Source of the DNA: Deltaproteobacteria bacterium
Lineage (GTDB): Bacteria > Desulfobacterota > Syntrophia > Syntrophales > UBA6807
Direction of reading: 5' to 3'
DNA: 18,997 nt
NCBI GenBank assembly: GCA_016935565.1
Contig: JAFGQS010000102.1
Coordinates: 1 to 18,997, forward strand
The notes below the pieces were generated by a model. The model made no database searches and had not been told where the DNA came from. It saw nothing but the letters and a program-made list of their open reading frames with translations. Positions 1,654 to 18,584 of this stretch are shown here, in pieces. Position 1 is the first letter of the stretch, and every line of letters starts with the position of its first letter. The translations under genes were made by a program, and so were the position numbers.

Positions 1654-2919
1654 CTATACGGGTCTATAGGAAGGAATGACGTTGAGCGCCATGTTGACGA
1701 TTCCATCGACGATTGATTGGAGCCAGCTCACACCGATCGATGCAACATCGGCATCCAGTGCCTGAATCATATGAGTATACCCTCGATCCTCTTTTGCCGC
1801 TATATTATTTATTGCCTGAATAAAAGAGGTTCTTTCGGTTTCCGCAATAGCCACTTCATTCTGTTCCGAAAAGCATTGTCCAAGGGGTGTCCAATTATTC
1901 AGAAGTTCAGCCTGCTGCTGAAGGATTATGTCTTTTTGTTGCCCCTGAAGGATATCCCTTCCCACCTGAATTGATTGTTCCATTTTTTGCGACAGTGCTT
2001 CGAAACGTTTCAAACGTTCGCTGACTGCCATCTCCAGTTTTTCCAGAGCACCCTCGAATAGACCGTCACCGAGTTCCTGCTTCTTGAAAAACGGTTTTCG
2101 CACGTGGATATACCACTGTCGCAGAGCAAGCAAGTTTGCCAGATAGACGATATTATTCAATACCCTTCTCTGGATGTTTCCATAGAAGCCTGGATGAAAA
2201 TGTTTTTCATACGCTTCTTCGCTGTTCCCGCCGATGAGATTACCACCGTCGTGACAATCACCTCTATACACCGTCCCCGCTGCGATAACCGTCCCGTAAC
2301 CTATTCTCGCCGGTCCGACCAATCCCCCCTGCCCTCCCAGGAATATAGGCGGCTGATTGAGCATGACCCCCCGGGGTACGTCACCGATGAGGGACGCCGT
2401 TGCCTTATCCTGATTGGGTGTATAATTGAAATGGATATAAGAACTGCCCACTTCACTGTGGTTCTTTCTGCTCGTCCCTCCGGCCATGAAGCAGTCGCAG
2501 AAATTGATCAGGCTCCCCAGTGTGACGAAGGGAAACAGTATGGTCTGTTTGAGCCCGACCGTGTGACTGCCGTTCGCCTCTTCCTCAAGTATGCAACCCT
2601 CTCGAACCTGAGCTCCGTATGCCATGTTCGCCTTTTCCAGAAAGACCGATTCCTTGAAATATCCTCCCTTCAGCTCGACCTCGGGTCCGAGCTGACAATT
2701 GACAATTGTTACAGGGGCTTCATATCCCAGTTGCGTTTTTGATGAAATAAGGGTGCGTACACCGTATATCTTTGTTCCCGCATGAAATATGGTCCCATCA
2801 CCTGATATTCTGTCGATGTCGACATCCTCACCTATTTCGATGGAAAACGGTGCAGGGATTTTCACTCCCTTATCGATTAATTGAATGACTTTTTCCGACA
2901 ATCTATCTGCCTTTTTCAT
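1654..2919 (-). CDS. Hexapeptide-repeat (left-handed beta-helix, LbH) acyl/acetyltransferase-superfamily protein with a roughly 190-aa alpha-helical C-terminal domain. Exact function unknown.
   Basis: There are many tandem [LIV]-G-x-x-x-x hexapeptides (IGEDVD, ISGDGT, IFHAGT, IYGVRT ... LGGQGG, LVGPAR, IGYGTV, IAAGTV). No nucleotidyltransferase GxGTRL-type N-terminal domain is present. A strong SD (AAGGAAGG) sits just upstream of ATG 2919. The gene is the last in the glmM-nagB cluster. Confidence 0.55.
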   Translation of the reverse strand: MKKADRLSEKVIQLIDKGVKIPAPFSIEIGEDVDIDRISGDGTIFHAGTKIYGVRTLISSKTQLGYEAPVTIVNCQLGPEVELKGGYFKESVFLEKANMAYGAQVREGCILEEEANGSHTVGLKQTILFPFVTLGSLINFCDCFMAGGTSRKNHSEVGSSYIHFNYTPNQDKATASLIGDVPRGVMLNQPPIFLGGQGGLVGPARIGYGTVIAAGTVYRGDCHDGGNLIGGNSEEAYEKHFHPGFYGNIQRRVLNNIVYLANLLALRQWYIHVRKPFFKKQELGDGLFEGALEKLEMAVSERLKRFEALSQKMEQSIQVGRDILQGQQKDIILQQQAELLNNWTPLGQCFSEQNEVAIAETERTSFIQAINNIAAKEDRGYTHMIQALDADVASIGVSWLQSIVDGIVNMALNVIPSYRPV

Positions 2920-2995: not shown

Positions 2996-3964
2996 TTACA
3001 CTTGATTACTAATATCTTTGACTTCAATCCCCCGTTTTTCGATTTCAGAAATGCAGTCAACCACGTGTTCCGCAGCCTCCACATCGATGACATAGATCAT
3101 TTCACCGCCGTTATTCGAAAAAACCTGTCCATAGGATATGGGGATCATCGGCGAAGGATCGTTCAGCAGCGATTCAGCGACAGGACCCGCCTTTCTCTTT
3201 CCGCTTGCAAGAAGAACCACCTTTTTTGCCTGATAGACGAGCTCGGCACCCATAGAAATTGCATACCAGGGACTTTTGTTTTTGCTGCTGAAATGCCCGT
3301 CTTCAACGGCATTCGAAACAGTGTTGTCGTCGAGCCGGACAAGGAGCATCCGGTTGCCCTCAAAAGGAATACCCGACTCATGGAACGCCACATGGCCTTT
3401 TCCACCCACTCCGACGATGTGTAGGTCAATTCCTCCCCGCTCTTCGATTTTCTCCGCGTAGGAATCGAGTACTTCATCTCTTACCCAGGAGAGATACGAT
3501 GATTTGGCATCCTTCCGGATGACGATGGCTTTGCCATTATCCTTTCCCTGTTCTTCCCAGTCATTCGGATTCGCTTTCAGTTCTTCTTCAAGCCTGTCCT
3601 GATCGATCAAAGTACCCCAGGGGACGTTCGTCTCTTTAAATTTTGTCGGTAAGAGTCCGAAGAGTTCCTGAATCATAAAGAAACTGTAACTTTCGGGATG
3701 AAGCGCACGCTGCTGGGCGTTTTCTCCGGGGAGACCAACATATTCATCCAGATTGAAACTTTCGACCTTTGTAGGATCAAATTTTCCCTCACCGGCCGCC
3801 TTGGCAAGCAGTTTATACAGGCCGGTAGGTGAATTGCCCGTCGCTAATCCCATGACATAATTATCCCGTCTATCAAGGGTACTTACAACATCCTCGATAA
3901 CGATATCAGCTCCGACCGCACTCATCTGCTCAAAATCTCTTGTTATCAATACTTTAAAGGACAT
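2996..3964 (-). CDS. nagB: Glucosamine-6-phosphate deaminase/isomerase (NagB family), long form with a roughly 55-aa internal insertion.
   Basis: GLATGNSPTG, FNLDEYVGLP and HIVGVGGKGHVAFHE match the NagB/6-phosphogluconolactonase-fold signatures (E. coli LGLPTGGTP, FNMDEYVGLP, GGVGNDGHIAFNEP). The ATG at 3964 is preceded by GAGGAG at -9. The GTG at 3973 in the ORF track is a less likely start. Confidence 0.85.
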   Translation of the reverse strand: MSFKVLITRDFEQMSAVGADIVIEDVVSTLDRRDNYVMGLATGNSPTGLYKLLAKAAGEGKFDPTKVESFNLDEYVGLPGENAQQRALHPESYSFFMIQELFGLLPTKFKETNVPWGTLIDQDRLEEELKANPNDWEEQGKDNGKAIVIRKDAKSSYLSWVRDEVLDSYAEKIEERGGIDLHIVGVGGKGHVAFHESGIPFEGNRMLLVRLDDNTVSNAVEDGHFSSKNKSPWYAISMGAELVYQAKKVVLLASGKRKAGPVAESLLNDPSPMIPISYGQVFSNNGGEMIYVIDVEAAEHVVDCISEIEKRGIEVKDISNQV

Positions 3965-4031
3965 ACGTTCCACTCCTCAACTCAGTGATTGTGAATCTCT
4001 CTTCCTGTTACATCGTCCTGGTCGCATATCA

Positions 4032-5381
4032 TCAACCGATGGTTTTTTTGATGATGTCAGCAATCTGACTGCAGTATTTCTCCGTCTCCGTATCGGAGGG
4101 TCCTTCTACCATAACCCGACACATATTCTGCGTTCCCGAGTATCTGACAAGAACCCTTCCCGTATCTCCCAGTTTTTTCTCAACAGATTCGATGGCTTTT
4201 ACGATTTCGGGTACCTCCGATATATCCGGCTTGGATTTTACGTCAACATTGATCAGCTTTTGCGGATACACCTTCATTATACGTGCAAGTTCCGACAGGG
4301 GCTTTCCATTCTTCAGCATTGCCCCCATAACCTGCAATGCCGAGACAATGCCATCGCCTGTCGTATGATGGTGGAGAAAAATAAGGTGTCCCGATTCCTC
4401 TCCACCGATCGAAGCACCTCTCGCTCTCATCTCTTCCAGTACGTACCGGTCACCTACCTTCGTTGAGACTTGCTCTATGCCGAGAGACTTGAGGGCAACG
4501 CCGAGACCTATGTTACTCATGACGGTGCTTACAATGATGTTATTATCAAGGGAACCTTCTGCTTTCATGACTTTTGCACAGAGCGCCATAATCTGGTCTC
4601 CCGTCAGCACCTGTCCCTTTTCGTCAACTGCAATGAGCCGGTCCCCATCACCATCAAAGGCAAAACCAACGTCTGCTTTTTGCTTTATCACTTCTTCCGC
4701 TAATTTCTCAGGATGTTGTGAGCCACAGTTGTCGTTGATATTCTTCCCGTTTGGCTCTGCAAATAACGTGATCACTTCGGCACCAAGCTCAAAAAATGTC
4801 TGAGGTGCTACCCGGTAGGTAGCCCCATGAGAACAGTCCAGCACTATCCTGGTTCCCTCCAGCGTATATTCCTTTGGAAAAGTATTCTTCAGAAAGACAA
4901 TATATCGATCTCTTGCCCCTTCGATCCTGTAAGCCTTCCCAAGTTCATGGGGAGAGGGGTGAAGTGTCTGCATATTGTTTGAGTTGATCAGGTTTTCGAT
5001 TTCGTCTTCCTTTTCATCGGGCAATTTATATCCATCATTTGAAAAGATTTTTATTCCGTTATCCTGGAAGGGATTATGGGATGCAGATATCACGATACCC
5101 GCGTCAGCGCGCATGTTACTTGTCAGATAAGCTATTCCGGGGGTAGGCATTGTTCCTACCAGAACCGCGTTGACTCCCATTGAGCATATGCCCGATACAA
5201 GAGCATTTTCAAGGACATAACCTGAGATACGCGTGTCTTTGCCGATTATTATGCTTGGATTATGTCCTTTCCTCTTGAAAAGATGTGCCGTTGCTCTTCC
5301 GATGTTTAAGGCCATCTCGGAGGTCATCGGATACTCATTGGCTACCCCCCTTACACCGTCCGTTCCAAACAGTCTTCCCAT
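4032..5381 (-). CDS. glmM: Phosphoglucosamine mutase.
   Basis: The N-terminus MGRLFGTDGVRG and the phosphoserine-loop-like SASHNPFQDNGIKIF are canonical for GlmM (alpha-D-phosphohexomutase family). GAGGAG lies 8 nt upstream of the ATG. Confidence 0.95.
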   Translation of the reverse strand: MGRLFGTDGVRGVANEYPMTSEMALNIGRATAHLFKRKGHNPSIIIGKDTRISGYVLENALVSGICSMGVNAVLVGTMPTPGIAYLTSNMRADAGIVISASHNPFQDNGIKIFSNDGYKLPDEKEDEIENLINSNNMQTLHPSPHELGKAYRIEGARDRYIVFLKNTFPKEYTLEGTRIVLDCSHGATYRVAPQTFFELGAEVITLFAEPNGKNINDNCGSQHPEKLAEEVIKQKADVGFAFDGDGDRLIAVDEKGQVLTGDQIMALCAKVMKAEGSLDNNIIVSTVMSNIGLGVALKSLGIEQVSTKVGDRYVLEEMRARGASIGGEESGHLIFLHHHTTGDGIVSALQVMGAMLKNGKPLSELARIMKVYPQKLINVDVKSKPDISEVPEIVKAIESVEKKLGDTGRVLVRYSGTQNMCRVMVEGPSDTETEKYCSQIADIIKKTIG

Positions 5382-5616
5382 AATCTTTCTCCTCGCCTTT
5401 ATTTACAGTTTAAAAATCTGAAAATGGTCAACTTTGCGTACCCGTTTCAGCATCTATTTTCATTGCATTCGTCCAAGAATCAACCGTTGAAGGCAAATCC
5501 TTGTTCTATGACCAAGTTACCGACACAACGATTTGTAGTATAGTGTCTATCCATATCAGCAAACGACATTATTCTTGCGGTTTTTTAAGTCATTGTTTAT
5601 ATTCAACACTCCGACC

Positions 5617-5666
5617 GGAGGTATCTGATAAGTGGAGGGATGAAATTGTGATGAAACCTCCTTTTT
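5617..5666 (+). terminator. Terminator-like hairpin on the plus strand. GGAGG(T), present at 5617-5622 and again at 5634-5638, can pair with ACCTCC at 5656-5661, which is followed by TTTTT.
   Basis: Seen directly in the sequence. It lies in the 389-bp AT-rich intergenic region between glmM (start) and gltA (stop), where no annotated plus-strand transcript is expected. The stem is short (5-6 bp) and the loop is long. Confidence 0.25.
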
Positions 5667-5770
5667 GGGCGAGAAGTATAGGCAAAATGAGTTTGTTATG
5701 TCAATACAATTTTATAATCCACCATAGTACCAGCCAAAAACCCTGATTATGACAATCACACGTGTAAGAA

Positions 5771-7147
5771 TCACAAATACGACGCAGAAGATCGGTATTT
5801 TGTTTCGAATGTTTTTTCAACCGATTGCGGATAAAGTCTTCTTCCATTTACTTCTTTCGGTTTCCGCTCTGGAATGGGAATATAATCTCTTTTTCCCGGG
5901 CCACTATAAACCTGACGGGGGCGACAGAGTTTTCCCCTTGGATCCTCGCGGCTTTCTTTCCACTGACTGATCCATCCTGGCAATCGGCCGATGGCGAACA
6001 TAACCGTAAACATATCAAGAGGGATACCTATTGCCCTGAGAAACATACCGCTGTAAAAGTCAATATTGGGATACAGTTTGTTATCAATGAAATATGAATC
6101 TCTCAGGGCTGTTTCCTCAAGTTTCATGGCAATATCGAGAAGCGGATCATTAAAGTCACGTTTTTCCAGAATTCTGTAGCACATTTTCTTCATGATTCGG
6201 CCCCGGGGATCGTAATTCTTGTAAATACTATGACCGAATCCCATCAAGCGAAACGGATCATTTTTGTCCTTTGCTCTCGCAACGAACGGTGCCGGATCAC
6301 CACCTCTGTCATAAATCTCCTGGAGCATCTCGACGACCGCCTGGTTCGCACCGCCATGCAGTGGGCCCCACAGAGCACTGATACCTGTCGAGATTGCCGC
6401 ATAGAGATTTACCCGGGCACTTCCTACGAGACGCACAGCCGACGTAGAACAATTCTGTTCATGGTCCGCATGGAGAATCCAGAAAACATTGAGGGCACTC
6501 ACCATATCCTCATCAATGACATAGGGACGGACTGCCGAGTCGAACATCATATTAAGAAAATTTGCACAGTAGCTTAAAAAATATGACGGATATACAACCG
6601 GCATTCCCTTGGATATTCTGTATGACATGGCAGCCATGGTTCTCAGCTTCGAAAGAAGCCGTGCAAACGCTTTGTTAATCTCGGCTTCTTCCGACCGTTC
6701 CGGAATTTCAGGATAGAAGGCCCTTAAGGCATTGACCATCGATGAAAGAATGCCCATCGGATGCGCACCCCTGGGATATCGTTCGAAGAAGTGACGCATA
6801 TCTTCATGTACGAGAGAATGATCATTCAGCATGGCTGAAAAGTCAGAAAGTTCTTCTTTCGTCGGCAATTCCCCGGTGATTAAGAGAAAGGCCGTTTCAA
6901 TAAAGCTGGAGTGTTCTGCCAGTCGTTCGATGGGAATGCCCCGATATCGCAGGATTCCCTTCTCACCATCCATATAGGATATGCTGCTCGTACAACTGCC
7001 TGTGTTACCGAATCCCGGGTCATATGTAATAAGTCCTGTTTCCTTACGGAGTCGGGAAATATCAATCGCCCGATTTCCGTCAGTTCCTACCATAACAGGC
7101 AGTTCATAAGACTTTCCATCAACAATGAGGGTGGCAGTCTTTTTCAT
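5771..7147 (-). CDS. gltA: Citrate synthase, type II (hexameric, Gram-negative-like).
   Basis: MKKTATLIVDGKSYELPV...ITYDPGF aligns with E. coli GltA MADTKAKLTLNGDTAVELDV...FTFDPGF, and RPRQVYSGPGKRDY aligns with its C-terminus. I chose ATG 7147 (AGAGGT SD at -9) over the upstream ATG 7186, because 7186 would place a T8/A8 homopolymer (7162-7169) inside the coding region and has a weaker SD. The protein has roughly 28 extra C-terminal residues relative to E. coli. Confidence 0.9.
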   Translation of the reverse strand: MKKTATLIVDGKSYELPVMVGTDGNRAIDISRLRKETGLITYDPGFGNTGSCTSSISYMDGEKGILRYRGIPIERLAEHSSFIETAFLLITGELPTKEELSDFSAMLNDHSLVHEDMRHFFERYPRGAHPMGILSSMVNALRAFYPEIPERSEEAEINKAFARLLSKLRTMAAMSYRISKGMPVVYPSYFLSYCANFLNMMFDSAVRPYVIDEDMVSALNVFWILHADHEQNCSTSAVRLVGSARVNLYAAISTGISALWGPLHGGANQAVVEMLQEIYDRGGDPAPFVARAKDKNDPFRLMGFGHSIYKNYDPRGRIMKKMCYRILEKRDFNDPLLDIAMKLEETALRDSYFIDNKLYPNIDFYSGMFLRAIGIPLDMFTVMFAIGRLPGWISQWKESREDPRGKLCRPRQVYSGPGKRDYIPIPERKPKEVNGRRLYPQSVEKTFETKYRSSASYL

Positions 7148-7226
7148 CGCACGGTTACCTCTTTTTTTTAAATAATCGTTCACCATTGATTTTATTCTGC
7201 CCTACTCGTTACATTCCACGCTCATG

Positions 7227-7264: not shown

Positions 7265-9850
7265 TTAATGAAAGCACATCACCTTCTGCGATACTACATC
7301 CGCCACAATTTGAATGTCTTCCTTTTCAACATCATATACTTTCACTACATTAACGTATTCATTCGCATCCGGCATAATTGTTTCTAAGGAGTTCGGCAAG
7401 CCGTTCAAATACTCTTCGTTATAGATAACATTCTCGTCTCCCGGGAAGAGTGCTACATAAAATATTTCCATTTCAACAAGATCCTGGAAAAAATGAGTGC
7501 CGTATGAGAGTTCCGGAATTAAATTGGCATCAACGTATGCAATTTCACCCAGTACGGTAATGTTATTTATTTCCGAAAAACTTACGGGAATCCCGAGAGA
7601 AGGAGTTGATGACCCCCATCTTCCCGGACCCAGCAGCATCGTGGGAGTTCGCTCTCTGTCATGGATTTTCCTGTTCAGTTTTCCTATCAATCGTGCCACT
7701 TCATATTTCCTTGGCAATGACAGATTATTATACTGTCTCGGATCCACAGATATAATTCTTCGAATTGCCTGATATATGGAGCCCCCCATAAATCTGCCTT
7801 CCGACCTGAAAAGGATTCTTTCTCCGTTCATACTCTCCGGAAATTCTACCTTTTTTTCCTGTCCCATTGTCTGTAACGGCCTGCATTGAACAAGATTGAT
7901 TTGAAACGTTCCATTTTTTGCAAAATTAACGGTAAACTCAATATCGACAGGGTACTGATAGATCGTTTCCAGTTTTTGAAGCATTTTCCGCATAATTGAC
8001 GTAAACGAGGTGTTTGACAGCAAATCATCAAACGTAATGATCCATGCTTCCTGTCCTTTAATTCCCAGTTCCTTCAATCTTTGATTGGTTTCATGATCTC
8101 TTACCGCTATACGATCCATAGGAATATTCAGATTTTCTCCCATGAGTTTCAACAATTGAACCGTCTGCAATTCGTTTTCTTTCAGACTCAACACATCCAC
8201 CTCACGCTGTGAGAACTTTCGTGTATCCTCCATGCCGGAATGCGGTTTCATTAATGGTTCATCAAGAGCAACAATACGGGGATAATCGCCCTCGACACGG
8301 TTCACCGCCCGCGTTCCCAGCCCAAAAACCAGTCTGAGCATCCCGGCGCGAGGATCCATAGCGGACTTCCAGACAAAGGTATTATAGGAAATGCCGACCC
8401 CTCCGATATCGGGAAACGCGTAGTGCTTCCTGTACGATCCCGATACCCGCTGAACCAATAAAGCCATTTGTTCATCTTCATTTTCCAGCCCTCTCTGGAG
8501 ACGATACACGAGGGCATTCTCATTCATGGTGCTTGCGTAAATTCGCCGAACGGCATCTTCAAACTGTGCATATCGTTCCTCGGGGCTTCCCTGATTAACA
8601 CAAAAAATACTTACATATTTGCCGGCGAATGCATTACCAAATGCGTCTTCGAGCAGGCTGCTGGAACGGACAATAAACGGCGATTGCCCGAAATATTCTA
8701 CAATTTCGAAAAATTGTTCTTTGATCTCTCCAGGGAATTCCCCGTTATTCATTTTTTCCGCAAGGATCCGGGCTGTATCAAAGTATCCTTCCTTCGTTTT
8801 TTGCTCCATGCGTAATTTCCACCAACCGTTCTGCACGATATACGTGTAAAAGACATCGGAACCAATATAGAACGAATCGTGGGGTTCTAAAACCTCGTTC
8901 CAATCAAAAGAAAGATCTTCCGACAGGATTTTTCTCGCAAGTAACATTCCCACTGCTTTCCCGCCGAGAAAGCCGGTACCGATTAACCGTTCCCTGATTC
9001 GCAGTAAATCCTCAAGGGAAAATTTTTCTTTGACGAGTATGGACATTCTCGGCTCCCGCGTCAGCATTATTCGGCATATTCTATCGATCATGTCCTGTTT
9101 CTCCCCGGATTCCCAGGGTTGATCCAATAACTCCTGAGCTCGTATAAACAGTCGGTCCCAGGCATCCAGTTTCCGTCTTGCCCGTTCCATTGTTTGTCGT
9201 GATATGTGGGAAAAGAGCTGAGCCGCATCAATACTGTTTGCGATAGGAATAAACTGGTCCCCTTCCTGCAAATGGGGAAGAAACATGGTTGGAGAATATC
9301 GCTGCCACACCTTTAAGGGGTGTACATAGAAAAGTCCCTTGTCTCTATAGACGTCGAGCAGTATCTGTGTTGTCTCTCGAATACGGGCGACCGTTTGATA
9401 AGAATGACTGTCTCTGATAATCGCAAAGTAAGCAATGGTATCAAGCTCGAAGAGATAGGGACAGGTAATCATAAAGAAGTTTCCAATCATGAGGTCAGTG
9501 GACCATGCCGACAATAAATCGGACAAACAGTCAAAAACATAGAAAACGCCCTTCCCTTCTTTTGTCAAAATAGTATGGACTTCCGTCGAAAATGACTCGA
9601 AGCCGCCTCCCGCATCCAGATGATGGATCACAACATTGGGATGCTGTTTCACCAGTGGTTTATGATGGGCAAACCGCATGTAGACGATTCTTCTGTCGTC
9701 TTTGATGGCCTTGCTCACGTAACTCTGGACAAAACATGCATATTCTTCGACGTCATCCACCCGCCATACGACGTTGTCACCGATCCGCAAATTATCGACA
9801 ATTTCATCCAGTCCTTTCAAACCGGTACTGATCCTTTCCAATAACTTCAT
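7265..9850 (-). CDS. Multi-domain protein of the PEP-synthase/PPDK N-terminal (nucleotide-binding) domain family. It is fused to an N-terminal KaiC/RecA-like domain that lacks a P-loop, and its C-terminus has a swivel-like region lacking the catalytic His motif.
   Basis: Residues 1-230 follow the KaiC-like pattern: [13 protein letters not shown], then [12 protein letters not shown] where GxxGxGKT would be, then a Walker-B-like VFYVFDCLS. Residues ~285-660 show [11 protein letters not shown] and [21 protein letters not shown], which match the PPDK_N signatures VGGKNASLGEM and [28 protein letters not shown] corresponds to the FIVQARPETV end of the domain. The C-terminal [16 protein letters not shown] (7601-7630) resembles the phospho-His swivel motif GGRTSHAAIIARELGIPAVVG, but without the His. 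The ATG overlaps the carB stop (ATGA). Confidence 0.8.
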
Positions 9851-12800
9851 CTAAAACTATCCTCCTCTTGAGAAGCGTAAATTTCCTGGAGAGATCGAAT
9901 ATTGCAGCATCCACTCCTTAAGGATCTGATTGCATTTGCCATGGCCGCAGCTCCCGAAATTGTCGTCACCAGGGGGATACCGTACGATACGGCTATACTC
10001 CGAATAGATACTTCATCGCGACGCGGTAGCGGGCCGCTCGGTGTATTAATCAGGAGATTAACGTTTCTGTTTTTTATGTAATCGAGAATATTCGGTCGAC
10101 CCTCGGCAAGTTTCGGAAGGCAGGCTACCTTGATTCCTCGATCCATGAGCACCCGCGCCGTTCCCGGGGTCGATAATATTTCAAAACCCATTTCCTCAAA
10201 CTTTTTACCCAGAGCTACGATAGACGGCTTATCGGAATCCTTAACGCTCAGGAACACCGTCCCAGAATCCGGTACCATTTGACCCGCTGCAATCTGGCTT
10301 TTCGCAAATGCCAGTCCTATGTCCTGATCGATCCCCATGACTTCACCGGTAGATTTCATTTCAGGCCCCAGTATGGTGTCAACCCCTGGAAATCTCGCGA
10401 AGGGGAGAACCGATTCTTTTACTGAAAAATACGTGGGCATGGGATCGCTCGTAATCCCCTGCTCCCTCAGGGATAGACCCGCCATGATTCGTGTCGCTAT
10501 CTTGGCGAACGGCAAACCCGTCGCCTTTGATACGAAGGGAACCGTTCGTGATGCCCTTGGATTTACCTCCAGAATATAAATATCATTGCCTCGCACGGCA
10601 TACTGAATATTGAGAAGCCCCCTGACGCCGAGTTCCCTGGCAATGTGTCGCGTCTTCTCTTTAATCGCAGTTACCGTTTCGTTAGCGAGAGAATACGTGG
10701 GGAGAACCATGGCACTGTCTCCCGAATGGATGCCGGCTTGCTCTATGTGTTCCATAACACCACCGATAATAACATCATGTCCATCCGACACGGCATCCAC
10801 ATCAACTTCAATCGCATCTTCAAGAAATTCGTCGATCAGAATAGGATGATCGGCGGATGCTTCAAAGGCTTCTTTCAGGAATCCCGCCAGGTCAGCCGGG
10901 CTCCAGACGACTGCCATGGCCCGGCCACCGAGGACATACGAGGGTCTGATGAGCACGGGATATCCTATTCTTTCTACGACCTTTTCCGCTTCTTCCAGAG
11001 ACAGTGCCGTGTCACTTCTCGGTTGTTTGATCCGGATCTTGTCTGCCATTTCCTTAAAGAGCTTTCTGTCTTCCGCACGGTCAATAGCCTCAGGTGATGT
11101 ACCAAGGATGTTCACGCCGTTTCGAGCAAGGGCCAGTGAGAGATTTAAAGGCGTCTGCCCTCCCAGCTGGACAACCACACCTTCCGGCTTCTCCACCTCA
11201 ACGATATTCAGGACATCTTCCAGCGTCAGCGGTTCAAAATAGAGCTTGTCTGAAATATCATAGTCTGTAGAAACCGTTTCGGGATTGGAATTAACCATAA
11301 TCGTCTCGTACCCCAGTTCTCTCAGGGCCATTGATGCGTGGACACAGCAATAATCAAACTCAATACCCTGACCGATCCTGTTGGGTCCGCCCCCAATAAT
11401 CATTATTTTCTTTGCATCTCCCGTCCTGCTTTCATCCTCTTCCTCATATGTGGAATAATAGTACGGTGTATATGCCTCGAATTCGGCGGCACAGGTATCA
11501 ACCAGTTTATAAACCGGTTTTATTCCCTTCTGTACCCTGAGAGACCGTATCTCGGATTCACTTATGCCGGTTATAGTGCTCATTTGCATATCGGAGAAAC
11601 CGAACCGCTTGGCTGCACGGAGAGCATTCTCCGTAATACCGTTGGACTCTGTAAAAGCCTCAAGGGTCTTTTCCATACTTACGATCTCCTCGATGTTGTG
11701 CAGGAACCATGGATCGATATGGGTAAGTTCGGCAATCTGTTCGACAGAGAAACCCATTTGCATGGCATCCTTGATGTAAAAAAACCGTTCCGGCGTCGGC
11801 CGTACGAGCAGTGCTTCAATTCGATCGGGGTCCGGCTTCTGTTTCAATGTGGATTCATACCCGTGAATACCGATTTCCAAACCTCTGAATCCCTTCTGGA
11901 GCGCTTCTTTGAATGTTCTCCCGATTGCCATTGTCTCCCCGACGGATTTCATTGATATGGTAAGCGTATCATCCGCTCCCGGAAATTTTTCGAAGGCAAA
12001 ACGGGGAATTTTAACGACACAGTAGTCAATGGTCGGCTCGAATGATGCGGGAGTCTTCAGCGTAATATCATTCCGTATTTCATCAAGACTGTAGCCGACA
12101 GCAAGTTTGGCCGCAATTTTTGCTATGGGAAAGCCCGTCGCCTTTGAGGCAAGGGCAGAGGATCGTGAAACACGGGGGTTCATTTCTATGACCGCCATAC
12201 GTCCCGTCTCGGGGTGTACTGCAAACTGAATATTCGATCCTCCCGTTTCAACACCTATTTTCCGTATCACGGCAACAGCGGCGTTACGGAGTTTCTGATA
12301 TTCTCTGTCCGTCAGGGTCTGGGCGGGTGCAACGGTAACAGAATCACCGGTATGAATTCCCATGGGATCGACGTTTTCTATGGAACAAATAATGACAACA
12401 TTATCCCTGTTATCTCTCATGACCTCGAGCTCAAATTCTTTCCATCCGAGGACGGATTCTTCGATGAGTATCTCGCTTATCATACTTTTTTCTAAGCCGA
12501 GTGACGCTGACTCTTCAAATTCTTCAACATTGTAGACAAGGGAACCTCCGGTACCACCAAGGGTAAAACTCGGTCGAATAACCACGGGAAAGCCGATATC
12601 CTTGATGATATTTCGAGCTTCCTCCATCGTACTGGCTATTCCGCTTCTCGGTACTTCCAGGTTGATTTCGGCCATTGCCTTTTTAAACTCATCCCGGTCC
12701 TCTGCCTTCTTAATAGCGTCCAGATTCGCACCGATCATTTCAATACCAAGCCGTTCGAATACTCCTCGTTCGGCAACTTCGACTGCCGTATTTAAAGCTG

Positions 12801-13080
12801 TCTGACCACCGAGGGTGGCCAGAACCGCATCGGGGCGTTCCTTCTCGACAATCTTTTCAAGAACATCAGCCGTTATCGGTTCGATATATGTATGATCCGC
12901 CATCTCAGGGTCCGTCATAATGGTGGCGGGATTAGAATTCAGAAGGACAACTTCATAGCCTTCTTCCCGCAGAGCCTTGCAGGCCTGGGTACCGGAATAA
13001 TCAAATTCACAAGCCTGGCCTATGACGATAGGACCTGATCCGATAAGGAGTATTTTTTTGATATCCGTTCGCTTGGGCAT
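9847..13080 (-). CDS. carB: Carbamoyl-phosphate synthase large subunit.
   Basis: 1077 aa. The N-terminus [30 protein letters not shown] is present. The internal duplicated ATP-grasp halves ([24 protein letters not shown]) and the MGS-like C-terminal domain are diagnostic. Confidence 0.97.
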
Positions 13081-13088
13081 CTTTTATT

Positions 13089-14627
13089 TTATTCCCATTC
13101 TATCGTACTCGGCGGTTTCGAGCTGATATCGTATACGACTCGATTCACACCGTGTACTTCGTTGATAATTCTCGATGACATGCGTGTCAGGACATCATGG
13201 GGTAGTCTCATCCAATCCGCCGTCATGCCGTCAAGGCTTGACACAATCCTTATGGCGATCACATTTGCGTACGTCCGTTCATCCCCCATAACGCCAACGG
13301 TTTTGACCGGCAACAGTACGGCAAAAGCCTGCCACACATCTTCGAAATGTTCGTACTTGAGTATTTCTTCCTTGACGACGCTATCGGCATGACGGAGCAC
13401 CTCCAGGCTTTCCTCCGTCACGTCACCGATGATGCGCACAGCCAGCCCCGGGCCGGGGAACGGTTTCCGTTTTAAAAGCTTTTCAGGCAGACCTAACTCT
13501 TTACCGAGAATTCTCACTTCATCCTTAAAGAGCTCTTTCAGGGGCTCGATCAACGCGAACTGCAGATCTTCAGGAAGACCTCCCACATTATGATGACTTT
13601 TAATCATTGCCGACGGTCCTCCATGAGCGGAACGGCTTTCAATGACGTCCGGATAGAGGGTGCCCTGGGCCAGAAAATCGGCATGGTTGATGTCTTTTGT
13701 TTCGGCCTGAAAAATTCTGATAAACGTTTCTCCGATTATCTTTCTCTTCTCTTCCGGATCAGTAACCCCTTGCAATGCCTCCAGAAATTCCTTCTTTGCA
13801 TCAACGATTGTAATATGCAGCGGATAATCATCGGTAAACATGGATTGAATATCATCGACTTCGCGCGCCCTGAGTAGTCCGTTATCTACAAAAACCGCTT
13901 TCATCCGGTCGCCGATAGCGCGGTCGATAAGTGCTGCCACAACTGCGGAGTCGACTCCGCCGGAGAGAGCGCAAATAACATTCGAGTCAGCAACCTGGGA
14001 TCGTATTCGTTCAATAGATTCTTCGATAAACTTCGTCATGGTCCAGCCGCCCCGGCAGCCGGCAACACGGTAAAGAAAATTCCGAAGCATATCCATTCCC
14101 TGAAGCGTGTGAACGACTTCGGGATGAAACTGGACTCCGTATATCTTTTTGGTATCGTTACCCATGGAGGCAACGGAGCAGGTAGCGGTTTGCGCCAGCA
14201 TTTTATAGCCATCGGGCACGATCGTCACATGATCGCCATGACTCATCCAGACGTCGAGCTGCTGTGCCAATCCGTTGAAGATTGAAGTATCATCTGCGAC
14301 ATCCAGCCGAGCCGGCCCGTATTCACCGCTCCTCCCCTTATCCACGGTGCCACTCAACAACAGTGCCAGCAGTTGCATTCCATAGCATATGCCGAATATA
14401 GGAACATTGAGATCCAGGATTCGTTCATCCATTGTGGGATGTTCCGGGTCGAGAACGGAAGCCGGCCCACCCGATAAAATCAATGCTTTCGGATTCATTT
14501 CTATCAGCTCATCCCTGGTAACACCGTGATGAACGATTTCGGAATACACACCGAGTTCTCGTATCCTTCGTGCGATAAGCTGGGCATACTGCGAACCGAA
14601 ATCAAGTACGGCAACTAATTCTTTCAT
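13089..14627 (-). CDS. guaA: GMP synthase (glutamine-hydrolysing).
   Basis: The class I GATase N-terminus (VLDFGSQY, GICYGMQL) is followed by a PP-loop ATP pyrophosphatase (SGGVDSAV) and the GMP-synthase C-terminal dimerisation domain. 512 aa. Confidence 0.95.
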   Translation of the reverse strand: MKELVAVLDFGSQYAQLIARRIRELGVYSEIVHHGVTRDELIEMNPKALILSGGPASVLDPEHPTMDERILDLNVPIFGICYGMQLLALLLSGTVDKGRSGEYGPARLDVADDTSIFNGLAQQLDVWMSHGDHVTIVPDGYKMLAQTATCSVASMGNDTKKIYGVQFHPEVVHTLQGMDMLRNFLYRVAGCRGGWTMTKFIEESIERIRSQVADSNVICALSGGVDSAVVAALIDRAIGDRMKAVFVDNGLLRAREVDDIQSMFTDDYPLHITIVDAKKEFLEALQGVTDPEEKRKIIGETFIRIFQAETKDINHADFLAQGTLYPDVIESRSAHGGPSAMIKSHHNVGGLPEDLQFALIEPLKELFKDEVRILGKELGLPEKLLKRKPFPGPGLAVRIIGDVTEESLEVLRHADSVVKEEILKYEHFEDVWQAFAVLLPVKTVGVMGDERTYANVIAIRIVSSLDGMTADWMRLPHDVLTRMSSRIINEVHGVNRVVYDISSKPPSTIEWE

Positions 14628-14641
14628 GTATCAACCCCTGC

Positions 14642-15730
14642 TCATTTCTTTTTTATCAGTTCGACAAAACGGCCGAAAAGATGTCGGGCATCATGGGGGC
14701 CAGGCCCCGCTTCGGGATGAAATTGAACCGAGAATAACGGTAATTCACGGTGTCTCATCCCCTCCAGTGTATTATCGTTGAGATTCATATGGGTAATCTC
14801 TATTGTCTCCTTATCCAGTGAGTCTATATCAACACAGAACCCGTGGTTCTGAACGGTAATGTCAATCTTTCCCGTTGCCAGATCTTTTACCGGATGATTT
14901 TCCCCGTGATGACCGAATTTGAGCTTATATGTGTTGCCACCCAGTGCAAGACCGATCAGTTGATGCCCCAGACAGATACCGAATATGGGCAGCGTTCCAA
15001 TGTCCAGTAACTTGCGGATTGTATCAACCGCATATGTTACAGCGGCTGGATCACCGGGCCCATTCGACAGAAGAACGCCGTCTGGACGGAGCTTCATTAC
15101 TTCACTGGCGGTTGTATCCGCCGGTACAACGGTGATACGGCATCCGACATTGATAAGCTGCTCAAGTATGCTGTATTTCAAACCATAGTCTAATACAACT
15201 ACATGAAGGGCTCCCCTTTCAGCCATGACATATGGTTTCTCGCAGGTTACTTCCCTGACCAGGTCCCTGCCGATAAGATCGGGGGAAGCTTTTACCTTTT
15301 CAATGAGAGATTGCGTGTCCTGGTCAATTGTCGAGATAACGGCCCTCATGGAACCTGCTTCCCGTATGTGTTTGGTAAGGGCCCGTGTATCGATCCCCTC
15401 GATTCCCATGATGCTGTATTCTTTTAAAAAAGATTCGAGGTCTTTTTCCGACCTCCAGTTGCTGGGCTTCCGGCACAACTCATTGACCACAAAACCTTCC
15501 AGCCAGATTGAACGTGACTCCGAGTCTTTCTCATTAATGCCGTAATTACCGATCAGAGGATATGTCATGACAACAATCTGGCCTTCATACGACGGATCGG
15601 TCAGTACCTCCTGATAACCGGTCATTCCGGTATTGAATACTACTTCGCCGTAATGTTCCCCGGGCATACCAAAGGACGTGCCTTCAAATATTCTACCGTC
15701 TTCTAGTACAAGTATTGCTTTTTGTGCCAT
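14642..15730 (-). CDS. carA: Carbamoyl-phosphate synthase small subunit (glutamine amidotransferase).
   Basis: The N-terminus MAQKAILVLEDGRIFEGTSFG and the GATase catalytic region GICLGHQL...HPE are present. 362 aa. Confidence 0.95.
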   Translation of the reverse strand: MAQKAILVLEDGRIFEGTSFGMPGEHYGEVVFNTGMTGYQEVLTDPSYEGQIVVMTYPLIGNYGINEKDSESRSIWLEGFVVNELCRKPSNWRSEKDLESFLKEYSIMGIEGIDTRALTKHIREAGSMRAVISTIDQDTQSLIEKVKASPDLIGRDLVREVTCEKPYVMAERGALHVVVLDYGLKYSILEQLINVGCRITVVPADTTASEVMKLRPDGVLLSNGPGDPAAVTYAVDTIRKLLDIGTLPIFGICLGHQLIGLALGGNTYKLKFGHHGENHPVKDLATGKIDITVQNHGFCVDIDSLDKETIEITHMNLNDNTLEGMRHRELPLFSVQFHPEAGPGPHDARHLFGRFVELIKKK

Positions 15731-15941: not shown

Positions 15942-17387
15942 TTACATGTCATGAGTTTTTTTCGCCCCTGCTGAAAATAATTCTTTACTGAAATTAACGG
16001 GAGTTGCCGTTGGATAATCCCCGCTGAAACAGGCCGTACAGTGTAAGCCTCCCTCCGGGACAGCGCTGAGCATCCCTTTCACCGACAGATAAGCCAGAGA
16101 ATCCGCTCCTATGTATTGCCGGATGTCTCCGATGCACTTGGAGGAAGCAATGAGCTCTCCCCGACTCGATATATCAATTCCATAAAAACACGGAGAGACA
16201 ACGGGTGGAGAGCTCACTCTGACATGGACTTCGGCTGCACCGGCATGTCGTATAAGACGAACCAGTTTTTTTAATGTTGTGCCGCGAACGATAGAATCTT
16301 CTACGACAACGACACGTTTCTTCCTCAATACCCCGGTGACGGGGTTAAACTTTACCTTCACATCCAGATCTCTTTCTCTCTGATGTGGTGCGATAAAACT
16401 GCGCCCTACGTAATGATTTCGAATGAGGCCGATCTCGAATCGCAGTCCCGAGGCCTGTGCATACCCAAGGGCTGCCGTATTTGCCGAATCGGGAATTGCA
16501 ATAACAATATCCGCATCGGCAGGGGCCTCTTCAGCAAGCTTTTTGCCCAGTTGTCTTCTGGTTTTGTCAACCTTTTCATCAAATATTATGCTATCAGGCC
16601 GAGAAAAATAAATATATTCAAATATACATAAAGCACTCCGTGATCCAGACGGCAACTTCTTAGACTCCATACCTTCTTTATCAACAGTAATAACTTCACC
16701 CGGTTCGACGCCTCTCGTGTAATCCGCACCGATAATGTCGAGAGCACAGGATTCGGACGCCACAACGGAGGCACCGCCTGCATTCCCGAGACAGAGCGGT
16801 CTGAACCCGTGGGGATCCCGGGCAGCAATCAATTTCGAAGGCGTAAGGAAGACAAAGCAATATGCGCCCTCAATCTTCATCAGTGCATCAATGATCATTT
16901 CCTCAATTGAATCTTTTTTTGATCGTGCAATAAGATGAAGTACAATTTCGCTGTCCGATGTCGTCTGAAAGATCGATCCCCGCTCTTCCATCGATCTGCG
17001 CAACTCGGCTGCGTTGACCAGATTCCCATTATGTGCCGCCGCTAGCTGCCCGCCCTTAAATTGTATCAGGAGCGGTTGCGCATTCTTGAGCCCCGACGAA
17101 CCTGTTGTCGAATAGCGATTATGACCGATGGCTGACGATCCCGCCAACTTCGGCATGATATAAGGATCTGAAAATACAGACCACACCAGTCCCATGTCCT
17201 TGTGAAGTACAATTTCATTACCGTTAGATGCAGCAATCCCCGAACTTTCCTGGCCTCGATGTTGAAGCGCATAAAGCCCGAGGTATGTATGCTCGGCAGC
17301 CTTCGGATCTCCGAATATCCCGAACACACCGCACGACTCCCGCGGATGGTCACGGAAGTCACTAACAAAATTTTTTGGGCGGGACAC
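15942..17387 (-). CDS. purF: Amidophosphoribosyltransferase (glutamine PRPP amidotransferase), [4Fe-4S]-type with an N-terminal propeptide.
   Basis: CGVFGIFG supplies the Ntn-hydrolase nucleophile Cys after an 18-aa leader. The PRTase motif VVVVEDSIVRGTT is present, and C-terminal Cys residues (CFYGID, CTACFSGDYP) match B. subtilis-type Fe-S PurF. The start is GTG at 17387, with AAGGAGG 5 nt upstream overlapping the dapL stop. Confidence 0.95.
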   Translation of the reverse strand: MSRPKNFVSDFRDHPRESCGVFGIFGDPKAAEHTYLGLYALQHRGQESSGIAASNGNEIVLHKDMGLVWSVFSDPYIMPKLAGSSAIGHNRYSTTGSSGLKNAQPLLIQFKGGQLAAAHNGNLVNAAELRRSMEERGSIFQTTSDSEIVLHLIARSKKDSIEEMIIDALMKIEGAYCFVFLTPSKLIAARDPHGFRPLCLGNAGGASVVASESCALDIIGADYTRGVEPGEVITVDKEGMESKKLPSGSRSALCIFEYIYFSRPDSIIFDEKVDKTRRQLGKKLAEEAPADADIVIAIPDSANTAALGYAQASGLRFEIGLIRNHYVGRSFIAPHQRERDLDVKVKFNPVTGVLRKKRVVVVEDSIVRGTTLKKLVRLIRHAGAAEVHVRVSSPPVVSPCFYGIDISSRGELIASSKCIGDIRQYIGADSLAYLSVKGMLSAVPEGGLHCTACFSGDYPTATPVNFSKELFSAGAKKTHDM

Positions 17388-17399
17388 TCACAACCTCCT

Positions 17400-18584
17400 T
17401 TACGACCATGTAATGTTCATATTTTTTAAGCGATTAAGTGCTAAATCCAGCCTTTCATCGGATACGGTAAGACTCATTCTGACAAAACCTTCACCAAAGT
17501 TGCCGAAACCAACACCGGGTGTACAGACAATACCGGCTTTTTCCAACAATAAGGTACAGAATTCCATTGAGTCGTAATCGGAAGGAATTTTTGCCCATAT
17601 GTAAAATGTCGATGAAGGTAATGGAACATTCCAGCCAATATCCCGTAATCCTTCAACAAAACGATTTCGCCTTGTTTTAAATACGTCACACAGCTTTTTC
17701 GCATCTTCTTCGCACTCCAAAAGAGCGGTAATCGCCGCTTTCTGAACGGGTATAAATATTCCCGAATCCAGGTTTGTCTTAACTTTTGCCAGTGCCTTAA
17801 TGACTTCAGCGTTTCCGACAGCAAAACCGACACGCCATCCCGGCATACAGAACGTCTTTGAAAGAGAATGAAATTCAACTCCCACTTCCTTTCCACCAGC
17901 TGTTTGAAGAAAACTAATCGCCGCCTTTCCATCATATGTAATTTCCGAGTAGGCCATATCATGACACACAAGTATCCCATGCTCTTTCGCAAACTTCACA
18001 ATTTTTTGAAATGTTTCCATATCAGCCATAGCGGTGGTTGGATTTGACGGATAGTTTAACCACAGCATTCTTGTATTGTATGACACCAAATCTTCCAACT
18101 CATCGATATCGGGAAGGTAATCACTTTCATGTCGCAAACGAAAATATCGAGGTAACGCTCCGGCAAGAATAGTGCCCGCCGTGTAGACAGGATAACCGGG
18201 ATCAGGTATGAGAACCTCATCGCCGGGATCGACGTGAGACAAGAATATGTGACCGATACCTTCTTTTGACCCGAGCAAAGGAAGCACTTCACACTCCGGA
18301 TCGACAGCAACACCGAACCGTTTTTCAAACCATTTCGCAAATGCATCCCTCAATTCGGGTATGCCAACGTAAGATGAGTAATGATGAGCGCCTTTGTCTT
18401 CAGCTGCATGCATGAGAGAATCGATAACGGACCTCGGTGGACTGAGATCAGGATCACCGACTCCCAGATCGATTATATCAACACCCGATGCAATGGCACG
18501 TTGCTTTATTTCATCAATCCTTGCAAAGAGATACGGCGGAAGTTGTTGAATCCTCGCAGCGTTTGTTTCTATCTCGATATTCAT
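17400..18584 (-). CDS. dapL: LL-diaminopimelate aminotransferase (class I PLP aminotransferase, DapL family).
   Basis: LPPYLFARIDEIK, IDLGVGDPDLSPP and VLIPDPGYPVYTAG align with the DapL motifs (GYLFPEI, ISLGIGDTTEPIP, IAVQDPSYPAYVDS). It is immediately downstream of, and overlapping (TAATG), dapF. The PLP-Lys region SLSKTF is present. Confidence 0.75.
   Translation of the reverse strand: MNIEIETNAARIQQLPPYLFARIDEIKQRAIASGVDIIDLGVGDPDLSPPRSVIDSLMHAAEDKGAHHYSSYVGIPELRDAFAKWFEKRFGVAVDPECEVLPLLGSKEGIGHIFLSHVDPGDEVLIPDPGYPVYTAGTILAGALPRYFRLRHESDYLPDIDELEDLVSYNTRMLWLNYPSNPTTAMADMETFQKIVKFAKEHGILVCHDMAYSEITYDGKAAISFLQTAGGKEVGVEFHSLSKTFCMPGWRVGFAVGNAEVIKALAKVKTNLDSGIFIPVQKAAITALLECEEDAKKLCDVFKTRRNRFVEGLRDIGWNVPLPSSTFYIWAKIPSDYDSMEFCTLLLEKAGIVCTPGVGFGNFGEGFVRMSLTVSDERLDLALNRLKNMNITWS

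Follow-up and report, generated by a model that had tools for sequence, protein, structure and literature searches.

The gene directly downstream of carB in an 18,997-nucleotide stretch of deltaproteobacterial DNA (contig JAFGQS010000102.1, hereafter the window), which we call X, is a real gene predicted to encode a widespread and unstudied three-domain enzyme. In many anaerobic bacteria, X probably takes part in nitrogen metabolism or in its control and has so far been overlooked there. We tentatively propose that members of the X family could well be dikinase-type phosphotransferases that use ATP and are linked with ammonium assimilation, with a regulatory role as the favoured one. In well-studied bacteria, ammonium assimilation is controlled by GlnD, PII, GlnE and NtrBC, while other groups use TnrA/GlnR, PknG-GarA or NrpR. 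To our knowledge, control at the enzyme level is poorly known in energy-limited anaerobes (syntrophs, Planctomycetota, Omnitrophota and Margulisiibacteria). The X family bears the marks of an unstudied core component, since its homologues are 55-68% identical across phyla, are operonic with nitrogen genes and sometimes carry the GAF sensor of a nitrogen activator.

Both the 861-aa open reading frame and its overlap with carB, as described in the initial annotation, were recovered (Table 1). The ATG of X (9850-9848) shares bases with the carB TGA (9849-9847) to form ATGA, and a Shine-Dalgarno sequence, GGAGG, is located at 9865-9861, 10 nt upstream of the X start. The genes leading to X are, in order, carA (14642-15730), guaA (13089-14627) and carB (9847-13080); the gaps along the series carA, guaA, carB and X are 14, 8 and -4 nt, and the four genes probably form one operon. 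Scanning the whole window for sigma-70 promoters and terminators gave no more sites than shuffled sequence, and was uninformative. None of the PADLOC models matched X (0 families at E<=1), so nothing there points to a defence role.

Table 1. Coordinates of X, its domains and its neighbours in the window.
Feature	Coordinates	Strand	Basis
Gene X (861 aa; KaiC-like / PPDK_N / His-carrier-like protein, MBN2515866.1)	7265..9850	minus	
ATGA, overlap of carB stop codon and X start codon	9847..9850	minus	
carA-guaA-carB block directly upstream of X, same strand	9847..15730	minus	
LL-DAP-type aminotransferase and purF (glutamine amidotransferase), further upstream	15942..18584	minus	
Type I citrate synthase, glmM and nagB-like glucosamine-6-phosphate deaminase homologue, downstream of X	2996..7186	minus	
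Residues 1-225, RecA-superfamily KaiC-like domain without Walker A loop	9176..9850	minus	
Residues 22-37, segment in place of KaiC strand and P-loop (GATGTGKT)	9740..9787	minus	HMMER alignment to KaiC CII
Residues 226-290, helical linker	8981..9175	minus	Secondary structure of AF2 model; match ranges of core-only relatives
Residues 295-672, PPDK_N ATP-grasp nucleotide-binding domain	7835..8968	minus	Pfam PF01326
Residues 676-861, C-terminal domain, no Pfam model	7268..7825	minus	
Residues 741-747, GPGRWG(S/T), conserved glycine-rich loop (the initial annotation's degenerate His motif)	7610..7630	minus	
H786 codon, candidate phosphoryl-carrier histidine	7493..7495	minus	

X had been described as an orphan. 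Instead, we found more than 8000 homologues; in addition, 878 clusters (50% identity clustering) matched at E<=1e-30, as did about 589 stretches in species-representative genomes in a separate search. A cultured carrier is Pelotomaculum propionicicum, with the orthologue WP_134213514.1. The carriers include Syntrophales, Desulfobacterota, Planctomycetota, Omnitrophota, Margulisiibacteriota and others. Their names are generic: MBN2515866.1 is called only 'PEP/pyruvate-binding domain-containing protein', its homologues mostly bear the same label, and some records say 'phosphoenolpyruvate synthase'. Thousands of such annotations are misleading, at the least. All dikinase-family matches among the NCBIfam models fell far below threshold, and by these searches no curated family model appears to cover X, in agreement with the earlier view that it belongs to no described family. 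Literature searches turned up neither a publication about the family or its architecture nor experimental data on X.

As proposed in the initial annotation, whose quoted motifs do lie at residues 22-33, 294-301 (FLGGKAVG), 394-412 and 741-756, the centre of the protein is a PPDK_N domain (PF01326, E 1.1e-49). Among the three Pfam models corresponding to the proposed architecture it was the only one to match: PEP-utilizers PF00391 gave no match to the X sequence, nor did KaiC PF06745 at E<=1. At the ATP-site residues K298, R395, E638, Q655 and R657 there is little or no variation, even among relatives at ~30% identity, and judged by these residues the ATP site of X is intact. When X was aligned with Pyrococcus furiosus PEP synthase using phmmer and hmmsearch, the alignment spanned the ATP-grasp domain and extended into the beginning of the His domain, pairing the hairpin 'ilfrSeGrf' of X with 'vilkGlGas'. 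PpsA and PPDK share with X the PPDK_N ATP-grasp domain, its ATP-site residues and, after it, a small domain that opens with a similar G-x-G hairpin and has a His at a helix N-cap. However, X differs from them in carrying an additional N-terminal KaiC-like domain, in a carrier-like domain that is ~70 residues longer and in which no sequence similarity to PF00391 was detectable, and in a nitrogen-assimilation context where theirs is gluconeogenesis.

X also lacks the PEP/pyruvate-binding TIM barrel of PpsA and PPDK: PF02896 had no match in X, and no free stretch is long enough to accommodate it. This led us to reject X as a true PEP synthase. Its scores were only 45-53 bits against NCBIfam PEP synthase cut-offs of 598-883. 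The Rph equivalog NF041857, whose cut-off is 999, scored 32.7 bits, over residues 360-469 only. Compared with Rph (PDB 5hv1), X has its KaiC-like domain in place of the acceptor-binding domain and has no antibiotic-resistance context. As had been concluded before, X is distinct from the classical PpsA, PPDK, Rph and GWD enzymes, and it would extend the PEP-synthase/PPDK module to a new architecture in which a KaiC-like pseudo-ATPase is the third domain.

The C-terminal domain is weakly similar to swivelling beta/beta/alpha domains, including the phospho-His domains of PPDK, EI and Rph. The initial annotation had considered this tail to be His-less, yet H786 is invariant: it is the only invariant His of X, and 72 of 76 distant relatives have it. 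H786 is the first residue (N-cap) of helix 786-793, which follows the loop S782-x-G784-(T/S)785, giving the motif SxG(T/S)H. In the predicted structure, the order of secondary-structure elements, rather than superposition, would place H786 at the phospho-His position of PEP-utilizer domains. A profile of the C-terminal domain had no match in the PDB, and Foldseek searches of the PDB with this domain returned nothing significant. For hhalign, we made a PEP-utilizers profile out of E. coli PpsA, PtsI and 13 PpsA-like sequences from viral contigs, and compared the profile of the C-terminal domain with it. The probability was <1% over 9-17 columns, with only an insignificant LGIPV match, and on these statistics neither the motif alignment of the initial annotation nor the one based on H786 appears to have sequence support.

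These data bear on the model originally put forward, in which the catalytic His is replaced by a Ser/Thr cluster, the pseudo-swivel tail autophosphorylates on GRWGSSTPS, the KaiC-like domain is an inert scaffold, and the role is specific to carbamoyl-phosphate or nucleotide metabolism. The GPGRWG(S/T) loop is indeed strongly conserved, with R744 invariant and 73 of 78 relatives keeping a hydroxyl residue at position 747, and LGIPV resembles the LGIPAV of PpsA. However, S748 and T749 are not constant among distant relatives, and the proposed alignment to GGxTSHAAI..GIPAVVG, which is the one that fared so poorly in hhalign, would leave the predicted strand-loop-helix-strand order unmatched. With an invariant His present as well, we consider this model very unlikely; its proposed metabolic role is discussed below with the genomic context.

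A profile made from 22 diverse X N-terminal domains had KaiC as its sole match among PDB sequences (E 0.0018), and a RecA-like core fold of KaiC-type topology is present. Invariant residues are R184 and D107, the latter at the Walker B position, and R184 belongs to a conserved pocket-like set of motifs together with GDNVVW, GFE and FDCLS. In contrast, the Walker A motif GxxGxGK(T/S) is absent: in the alignment to KaiC, acidic residues replace the GxxGxGKT loop, with VDDVEEY at the P-loop position. The earlier proposal of a KaiC-like N-terminus without a P-loop therefore stands on the diverse-profile match and on these acidic residues, although the Pfam KaiC model itself does not recognise the domain. 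X is thus related in fold to KaiC and KaiC-like ATPases (KaiC, ArlH/FlaH, SSO2452 and PH0284) but without their Walker A loop. Because this loop and a Pfam KaiC match are both absent, the domain is predicted not to be an ATPase of the KaiC family. It is comparable to the P-loop-less RecA folds of Elp4/5/6 and BcsE, which are also among its matches.

The genomic neighbourhood connects X to nitrogen assimilation. Nitrogen-assimilation genes lie within 6 kb (<=6 kb) of X in 65 of 78 loci, covering at least 8 lineage groups, against a chance rate that we roughly estimate at ~5-10%. The neighbours include gdh, gltBD, glnA, amt-glnK, nrpR, sigma-54 GAF activators, carAB and pyrG, often only 3-12 nt apart, and the linkage recurs in different gene orders across these groups. 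These distances are operon-like: the sigma-54 GAF activator stands 3 nt from X in 7 of the 8 loci, 8 of 10 gltD genes lie between -4 and 12 nt from it, 5 of 9 carB genes between -4 and 18 nt, and nrpR 1-34 nt. X is often the terminal gene of biosynthetic operons, as in gltBD-X and carA-guaA-carB-X, and X-pyrG also occurs. In one fusion, a GAF domain joined to X is 61% identical over 190 aa to the GAF domain of the adjoining sigma-54 activator, and the same locus carries carA-guaA-carB, amt-glnK, glnA and GOGAT.

Adjacency to carB, which the initial annotation had emphasised, is real and recurs in other lineages, with ~13 of 80 loci (~16%) in several phyla. Nevertheless, carAB is less common near X than any one of gdh, GOGAT and the sigma-54 activator genes. 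This argues against a role specific to carbamoyl phosphate, and we rejected a carB-specific function as the main reading; the earlier tie to carbamoyl-phosphate and nucleotide metabolism was too narrow, as the genes conserved around X belong to ammonium and glutamine assimilation and to its regulation. Regarding expression, sigma-54 promoter sites (TGGCAC-N5-TTGCA) occurred in the window at chance frequency, with none directly upstream of X; in related loci, good sites precede porin/amt-glnK operons and gdh, not X. NrpR operator sites (GGAA-N6-TTCC) were not enriched near X, and none was directly upstream of it.

The same neighbourhoods speak to whether X might simply be a non-catalytic or housekeeping paralogue of PEP synthase that follows a general clustering of central-metabolism genes. 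The 'phosphoenolpyruvate synthase' labels would fit this, as would the 52%-identical tandem forms of ~1470 aa that occur in Geobacter sp. OR-1 and elsewhere, whose neighbourhoods showed unrelated contexts and no nitrogen link. The nitrogen-context inference should not be extended to these tandem forms. However, strong purifying selection on the ATP-site residues and on H786, the missing TIM barrel, the PEP synthase scores far under their cut-offs, and a nitrogen linkage well above the chance estimate and recurrent in rearranged loci all argue against such a paralogue, and we regard it as extremely improbable.

Our model for the X family as dikinase-type phosphotransferases begins with the binding of ATP by the PPDK_N ATP-grasp domain. 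A phosphoryl or pyrophosphoryl group would then be transferred to H786 on the small, swivel-like C-terminal domain, a step modelled on PEP synthase, PPDK, rifampin phosphotransferase and L-glutamine kinase. The carrier domain would hand the phosphoryl group to an acceptor, which would not be pyruvate because the PEP/pyruvate TIM barrel is absent. The P-loop-less KaiC-like domain would most likely serve as an oligomerisation module or as a docking module for the acceptor or a partner. We place the acceptor or target in the glutamine/glutamate/2-oxoglutarate node, and the option that we favour is a regulatory modification of GDH, GOGAT, PII or the sigma-54 activator under the control of nitrogen status. 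The data would fit a small-molecule substrate just as well.

One such possibility is that X is a metabolite dikinase, that is, a pathway enzyme and not a regulator, whose acceptor (glutamine, glutamate or a 2-oxo acid) binds in a degenerate KaiC-like pocket. The precedent would be Cj1418, the L-glutamine kinase of Campylobacter jejuni: it is reported to be a PPDK/PEP-synthase-type protein, once mis-annotated as PEP synthase, that carries out the ATP-dependent phosphorylation of glutamine, a nitrogen metabolite (PMC10971088, PMC6429109). Cj1418 shows that a PPDK-type catalytic module can serve glutamine chemistry. However, it is located in a capsule-modification cluster. Cj1418 is not known to have a KaiC-like domain. 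The frequent last place of X in operons for glutamine-using enzymes, a cross-phylum identity typical of core enzymes and the conserved pocket-like motifs are also consistent with a pathway enzyme. In contrast, no enzyme acting on a phospho-metabolite is conserved beside X, so that follow-up enzymes are missing; X is as often operonic with regulators (the sigma-54 GAF activator and nrpR); the GAF sensor fusions suggest signal control; and the NCBIfam dikinase matches are far under their cut-offs. We consider a metabolite dikinase plausible in principle and, on balance, rather unlikely.

For the regulatory reading, Enzyme I-Ntr (PtsP; GAF plus PEP-utilising phosphotransferase) resembles X by analogy only, as its phosphoryl source is PEP and not ATP and it has neither an ATP-grasp nor a KaiC-like domain. 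In a more specific version, which we offer as speculation with a limited chance of being right, X would be a nitrogen-status transducer of anaerobes: a His-swivel dikinase under the control of 2-oxoglutarate or glutamine, with a P-loop-less KaiC-like ring as its docking platform, that phosphorylates GDH, GOGAT, PII, NrpR or a sigma-54 activator, or else makes a phospho-glutamine-type signal. If true, X would fill the same functional place as GlnD/GlnE or PknG-GarA, though assembled from entirely different parts.

Other forms of the protein also occur, among them gdh-linked paralogues with a nucleotidyltransferase at the C-terminus. Core-only relatives of roughly 600 aa begin with the equivalent of the helical linker, and among distant paralogues with different N-termini, 4 of 7 are located directly downstream of gdh.

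The window, 18,997 bp long, is a contig from a 'Deltaproteobacteria' MAG. Pfam and NCBIfam gave the identities of a series of genes that lie on the same strand in the order LL-DAP-type aminotransferase, purF, carA, guaA, carB, X (the 861-aa protein under study), type I citrate synthase, glmM and a nagB-like deaminase homologue. Gaps of 211 nt (purF-carA) and 78 nt (X-citrate synthase) flank a run spaced by 14 nt (carA-guaA), 8 nt (guaA-carB) and -4 nt (carB-X). The X ATG (9850-9848) overlaps the upstream TGA (9849-9847) as ATGA, bearing out the overlap with carB given in the initial annotation, and a GGAGG lies 10 nt 5' of this ATG. The motifs quoted in that annotation were all found in place when checked against the protein sequence. 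carA-guaA-carB is an unusual operon of glutamine amidotransferases, and the same order occurs in the Syntrophales relatives L002, L004, L037, L106 and L107. Models of glucosamine-6-phosphate deaminase match two distinct stretches of the nagB-like protein, both below the cut-offs, which suggests an insertion of ~40-60 residues or a divergent paralogue.

Features of the window around the gene for X
Feature	Position	Strand	Remarks
421-aa ORF	1654-2919	-	ends the glmM/nagB-like gene string; no match in Pfam or NCBIfam
nagB-like gene	2996-3973	-	325 aa
X	7265-9850	-	ORF, 861 aa; MBN2515866.1, sole name 'PEP/pyruvate-binding domain-containing protein'
carB	9847-13080	-	
guaA	13089-14627	-	GMP synthase gene between the carbamoyl-phosphate synthase subunit genes carA and carB
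carA	14642-15730	-	

X had been taken for an orphan; in contrast, a word-index search returned at least 8000 homologues, the best 120 of which show 50-94% identity and are nearly all full-length. When representatives at 50% identity were searched exhaustively, 878 clusters reached E<=1e-30, and in one-genome-per-species contigs at least 589 stretches, out of 600 candidates, proved to be true matches. Hosts among the matches listed include Syntrophaceae, Smithella, Syntrophorhabdus, Desulfobacteraceae, Planctomycetota, Omnitrophota, Margulisiibacteriota/Saganbacteria, Spirochaetota, Clostridia and Aegiribacteria. Among cultured bacteria it is carried by, for example, Pelotomaculum propionicicum, whereas Geobacter sp. 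OR-1 and Geoanaerobacter pelophilus carry a tandem form. The variants comprise an N-terminal GAF fusion (1055 aa), the tandem form of a core plus full X (~1470 aa), 'core-only' proteins (~600 aa), proteins with other N-termini (~780 aa) and proteins that end in a Pol-beta-type nucleotidyltransferase (1060-1650 aa).

The only Pfam match in X is PPDK_N (residues 295-672, E 1.1e-49), confirming the ATP-grasp centre that had been read from its motifs. Residues K298, R395-S398, E401-D402, E638, Q655 and R657 of the ATP-grasp domain are invariant or nearly so, including in relatives at ~30% identity. The NCBIfam models for PEP synthase, PigC/RedH and Rph match far below threshold and over residues 330-470 only, and a PADLOC search with X gave no match. 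The catalytic module belongs to a known kind. Among curated models there is no Pfam entry for the two outer domains and no NCBIfam entry for the family, and a literature search found no description of it; as far as can be seen, there is no earlier account of the architecture, of the divergent carrier domain or of the linkage to nitrogen assimilation. Beside the ATP-site Gln and Arg, C656 (window 7880-7882, motif LVQCRP) is kept in 78 of 79 superfamily members, whereas PpsA carries Ala there (VQARP); a redox-sensitive or catalytic role is conceivable for this cysteine.

Searched against PDB sequences, a profile made from 22 diverse N-domains matched only KaiC CII (E 0.0018 and 0.019), with STGxxGLD aligned to SSGVPELD and FDCLSxL to IDSLSAL. 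In contrast to KaiC, X carries acidic residues at the GATGTGKT position. Together, these two observations confirm the earlier reading of a KaiC-like domain without a P-loop, at the level of fold and, weakly, of sequence. The conserved motifs of this domain are GDNVVW, GFE, FDCLS and R184.

The tail had been described as lacking the catalytic histidine, with a Ser/Thr cluster in its place. However, H786 is the sole invariant histidine of the whole protein and is retained in 72 of the 76 distant members of the superfamily, as are G743, R744, G746, G753, E769, S782, G784 and E793. In distant members S748 and T749 vary and position 747 keeps only a hydroxyl; we consider a Ser/Thr-based chemistry unlikely. 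The motif alignment to PEP-utilizers that had been offered for the tail proved to be a short LGIPV/LGIPAV match, to which hhalign gave <1% probability against a profile built from E. coli PpsA and PtsI together with PpsA-like sequences of viral contigs; statistically, the alignment is unsupported. Sequence-profile searches with the tail found neither PF00391 nor any solved relative, and Foldseek returned no significant match. Modelled alone, residues 668-861 reached a pLDDT of 92.7, with the predicted order strand 737-742, loop, strand 766-770, loop, His plus helix and strand 797-801; H786 starts helix 786-793 after an S-x-G-(T/S) loop. In the order of its secondary-structure elements this appears to mirror PpsA (strand VLVTD, TDP loop, strand AIVTN, GGRTCH plus helix, strand IPAVVG), and the structures that the model resembles, nearly all of them swivelling beta/beta/alpha domains (SCOP fold c.8), weakly suggest a swivel-like fold. 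HMMER alignments of X to P. furiosus PEP synthase continue past the ATP-grasp domain as far as the first His-domain hairpin. The tail is most probably a very divergent carrier-like domain that has kept its histidine, and its description as His-less is not supported.

To our knowledge, the characterised PPDK_N enzymes (PpsA, PPDK, Rph, glucan-water dikinase, PigC and glutamine kinase) all relay an ATP phosphate via a histidine, carried by a domain that swivels, to an acceptor held at another site. Since the ATP site of X is intact and an invariant histidine sits on an equivalently placed small domain, the most economical reading, by analogy, is that the phosphate would pass from ATP to H786 and from there to an acceptor. 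Here the acceptor domain is not a pyruvate TIM barrel; the KaiC-like domain, the only remaining conserved module, would be the docking site for the acceptor or for a partner, and it probably forms oligomers.

We surveyed the neighbourhood of X in the best-scoring 80 loci, a non-random sample in which ORFs were called crudely by our own procedure, clustered, and identified from a single representative of each cluster, checked with Pfam. The genes counted within 6 kb of X were a sigma-54 activator with a GAF domain (30 loci), glutamate dehydrogenase (gdh, 29), gltB (21), gltD (18), carB (12), amt (11), nrpR (11), PII (10), glnA (7), carA/guaA (7), pyrG (6) and archaeal-type GOGAT (5). At least one listed nitrogen gene lay this close in 65 of 78 loci, or 66 of 80 with archaeal-type GOGAT counted, and these 66 span every lineage group. 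Chance would give roughly 5-10% by our estimate, if a genome of 3000 genes holds ~15 of them and each neighbourhood takes in ~12 genes. Set beside these counts, the view of X as an unrelated housekeeping paralogue appears highly improbable. The carB link does exist and is seen again in Syntrophales, Omnitrophota and Planctomycetota, yet it makes up a minor part of the pattern, with carA or carB present in 13 of 80 loci.

Gene orders vary by lineage: carA-guaA-carB-X, gltB-gltD-X, carB-X-gltB-gltD, glnA-glnK-amt-porin divergent from activator-X, and gdh/nrpR-X-sigma54-amt-glnK-glnA. The spacing is operon-like, with gaps to X of 3 nt from the activator (7/8 loci), -4 to 12 nt from gltD (8/10), -4 to 18 nt from carB (5/9) and 1-34 nt from nrpR. 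One Syntrophales contig carries a near-complete assimilation set: purF, aspS, carA, guaA, carB and the GAF fusion of X, followed by opposite-strand glnK-amt and then the activator, glnA, GATase and GOGAT. The GAF domain of this fusion is 61% identical over 190 aa to that of the adjacent activator (L106 8001-11168 and 13323-14885; also L107), which implies that both proteins may respond to the same ligand and points to a recent duplication or transfer between regulator and X.

This context would put what X acts on, acceptor or target, at the glutamine/glutamate/2-oxoglutarate node. We tentatively favour a regulatory phosphotransferase, given that X shares operons with regulators and exchanges sensor domains with one of them. 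A metabolite dikinase of the glutamine-kinase type, for which Cj1418 is a precedent (PMC10971088, PMC6429109), ranks second, as a less likely reading.

Good matches to the sigma-54 promoter (TGGCAC-N5-TTGC) were seen on the minus strand near 1180-4121 in L005, L010, L012, L014 and L040, ahead of an unannotated ~290-aa gene without a Pfam match, possibly a porin, and amt-glnK(-glnA), divergent from the activator-X pair. In Syntrophorhabdus (L028, L047, L049 and L053, ~5512-5968), the gene immediately 5' of X, co-oriented with it and 26-39 nt away, encodes a 147-aa protein of the carboxymuconolactone-decarboxylase (CMD/AhpD-like) family and is itself preceded by a divergent LemA-family gene.

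No nitrogen context was found at the tandem-form loci examined. The 1472-aa form of Geobacter sp. OR-1 (L105 4500-14052), 52% identical to X, lies in a carbohydrate context between a 1149-aa alpha-amylase-family gene and glucose-6-phosphate isomerase; two others have no conserved context. Seven distant paralogues were also placed in context: four sit immediately 3' of a ~429-aa gdh, and three do not. The conserved gdh-linked modules (L112 2868-9195, L117 2960-9180, L118 4218-10965, L110 4681-8355; paralogues at 30-38% identity) run gdh, a ~580-aa PPDK_N core and a PPDK_N protein that bears a Pol-beta-type nucleotidyltransferase at its C-terminus, and look like a separate GDH-linked system. The last two proteins are fused in L118 (1654 aa), and L117 has a third PPDK_N protein ahead of gdh, which faintly matches a receiver domain.
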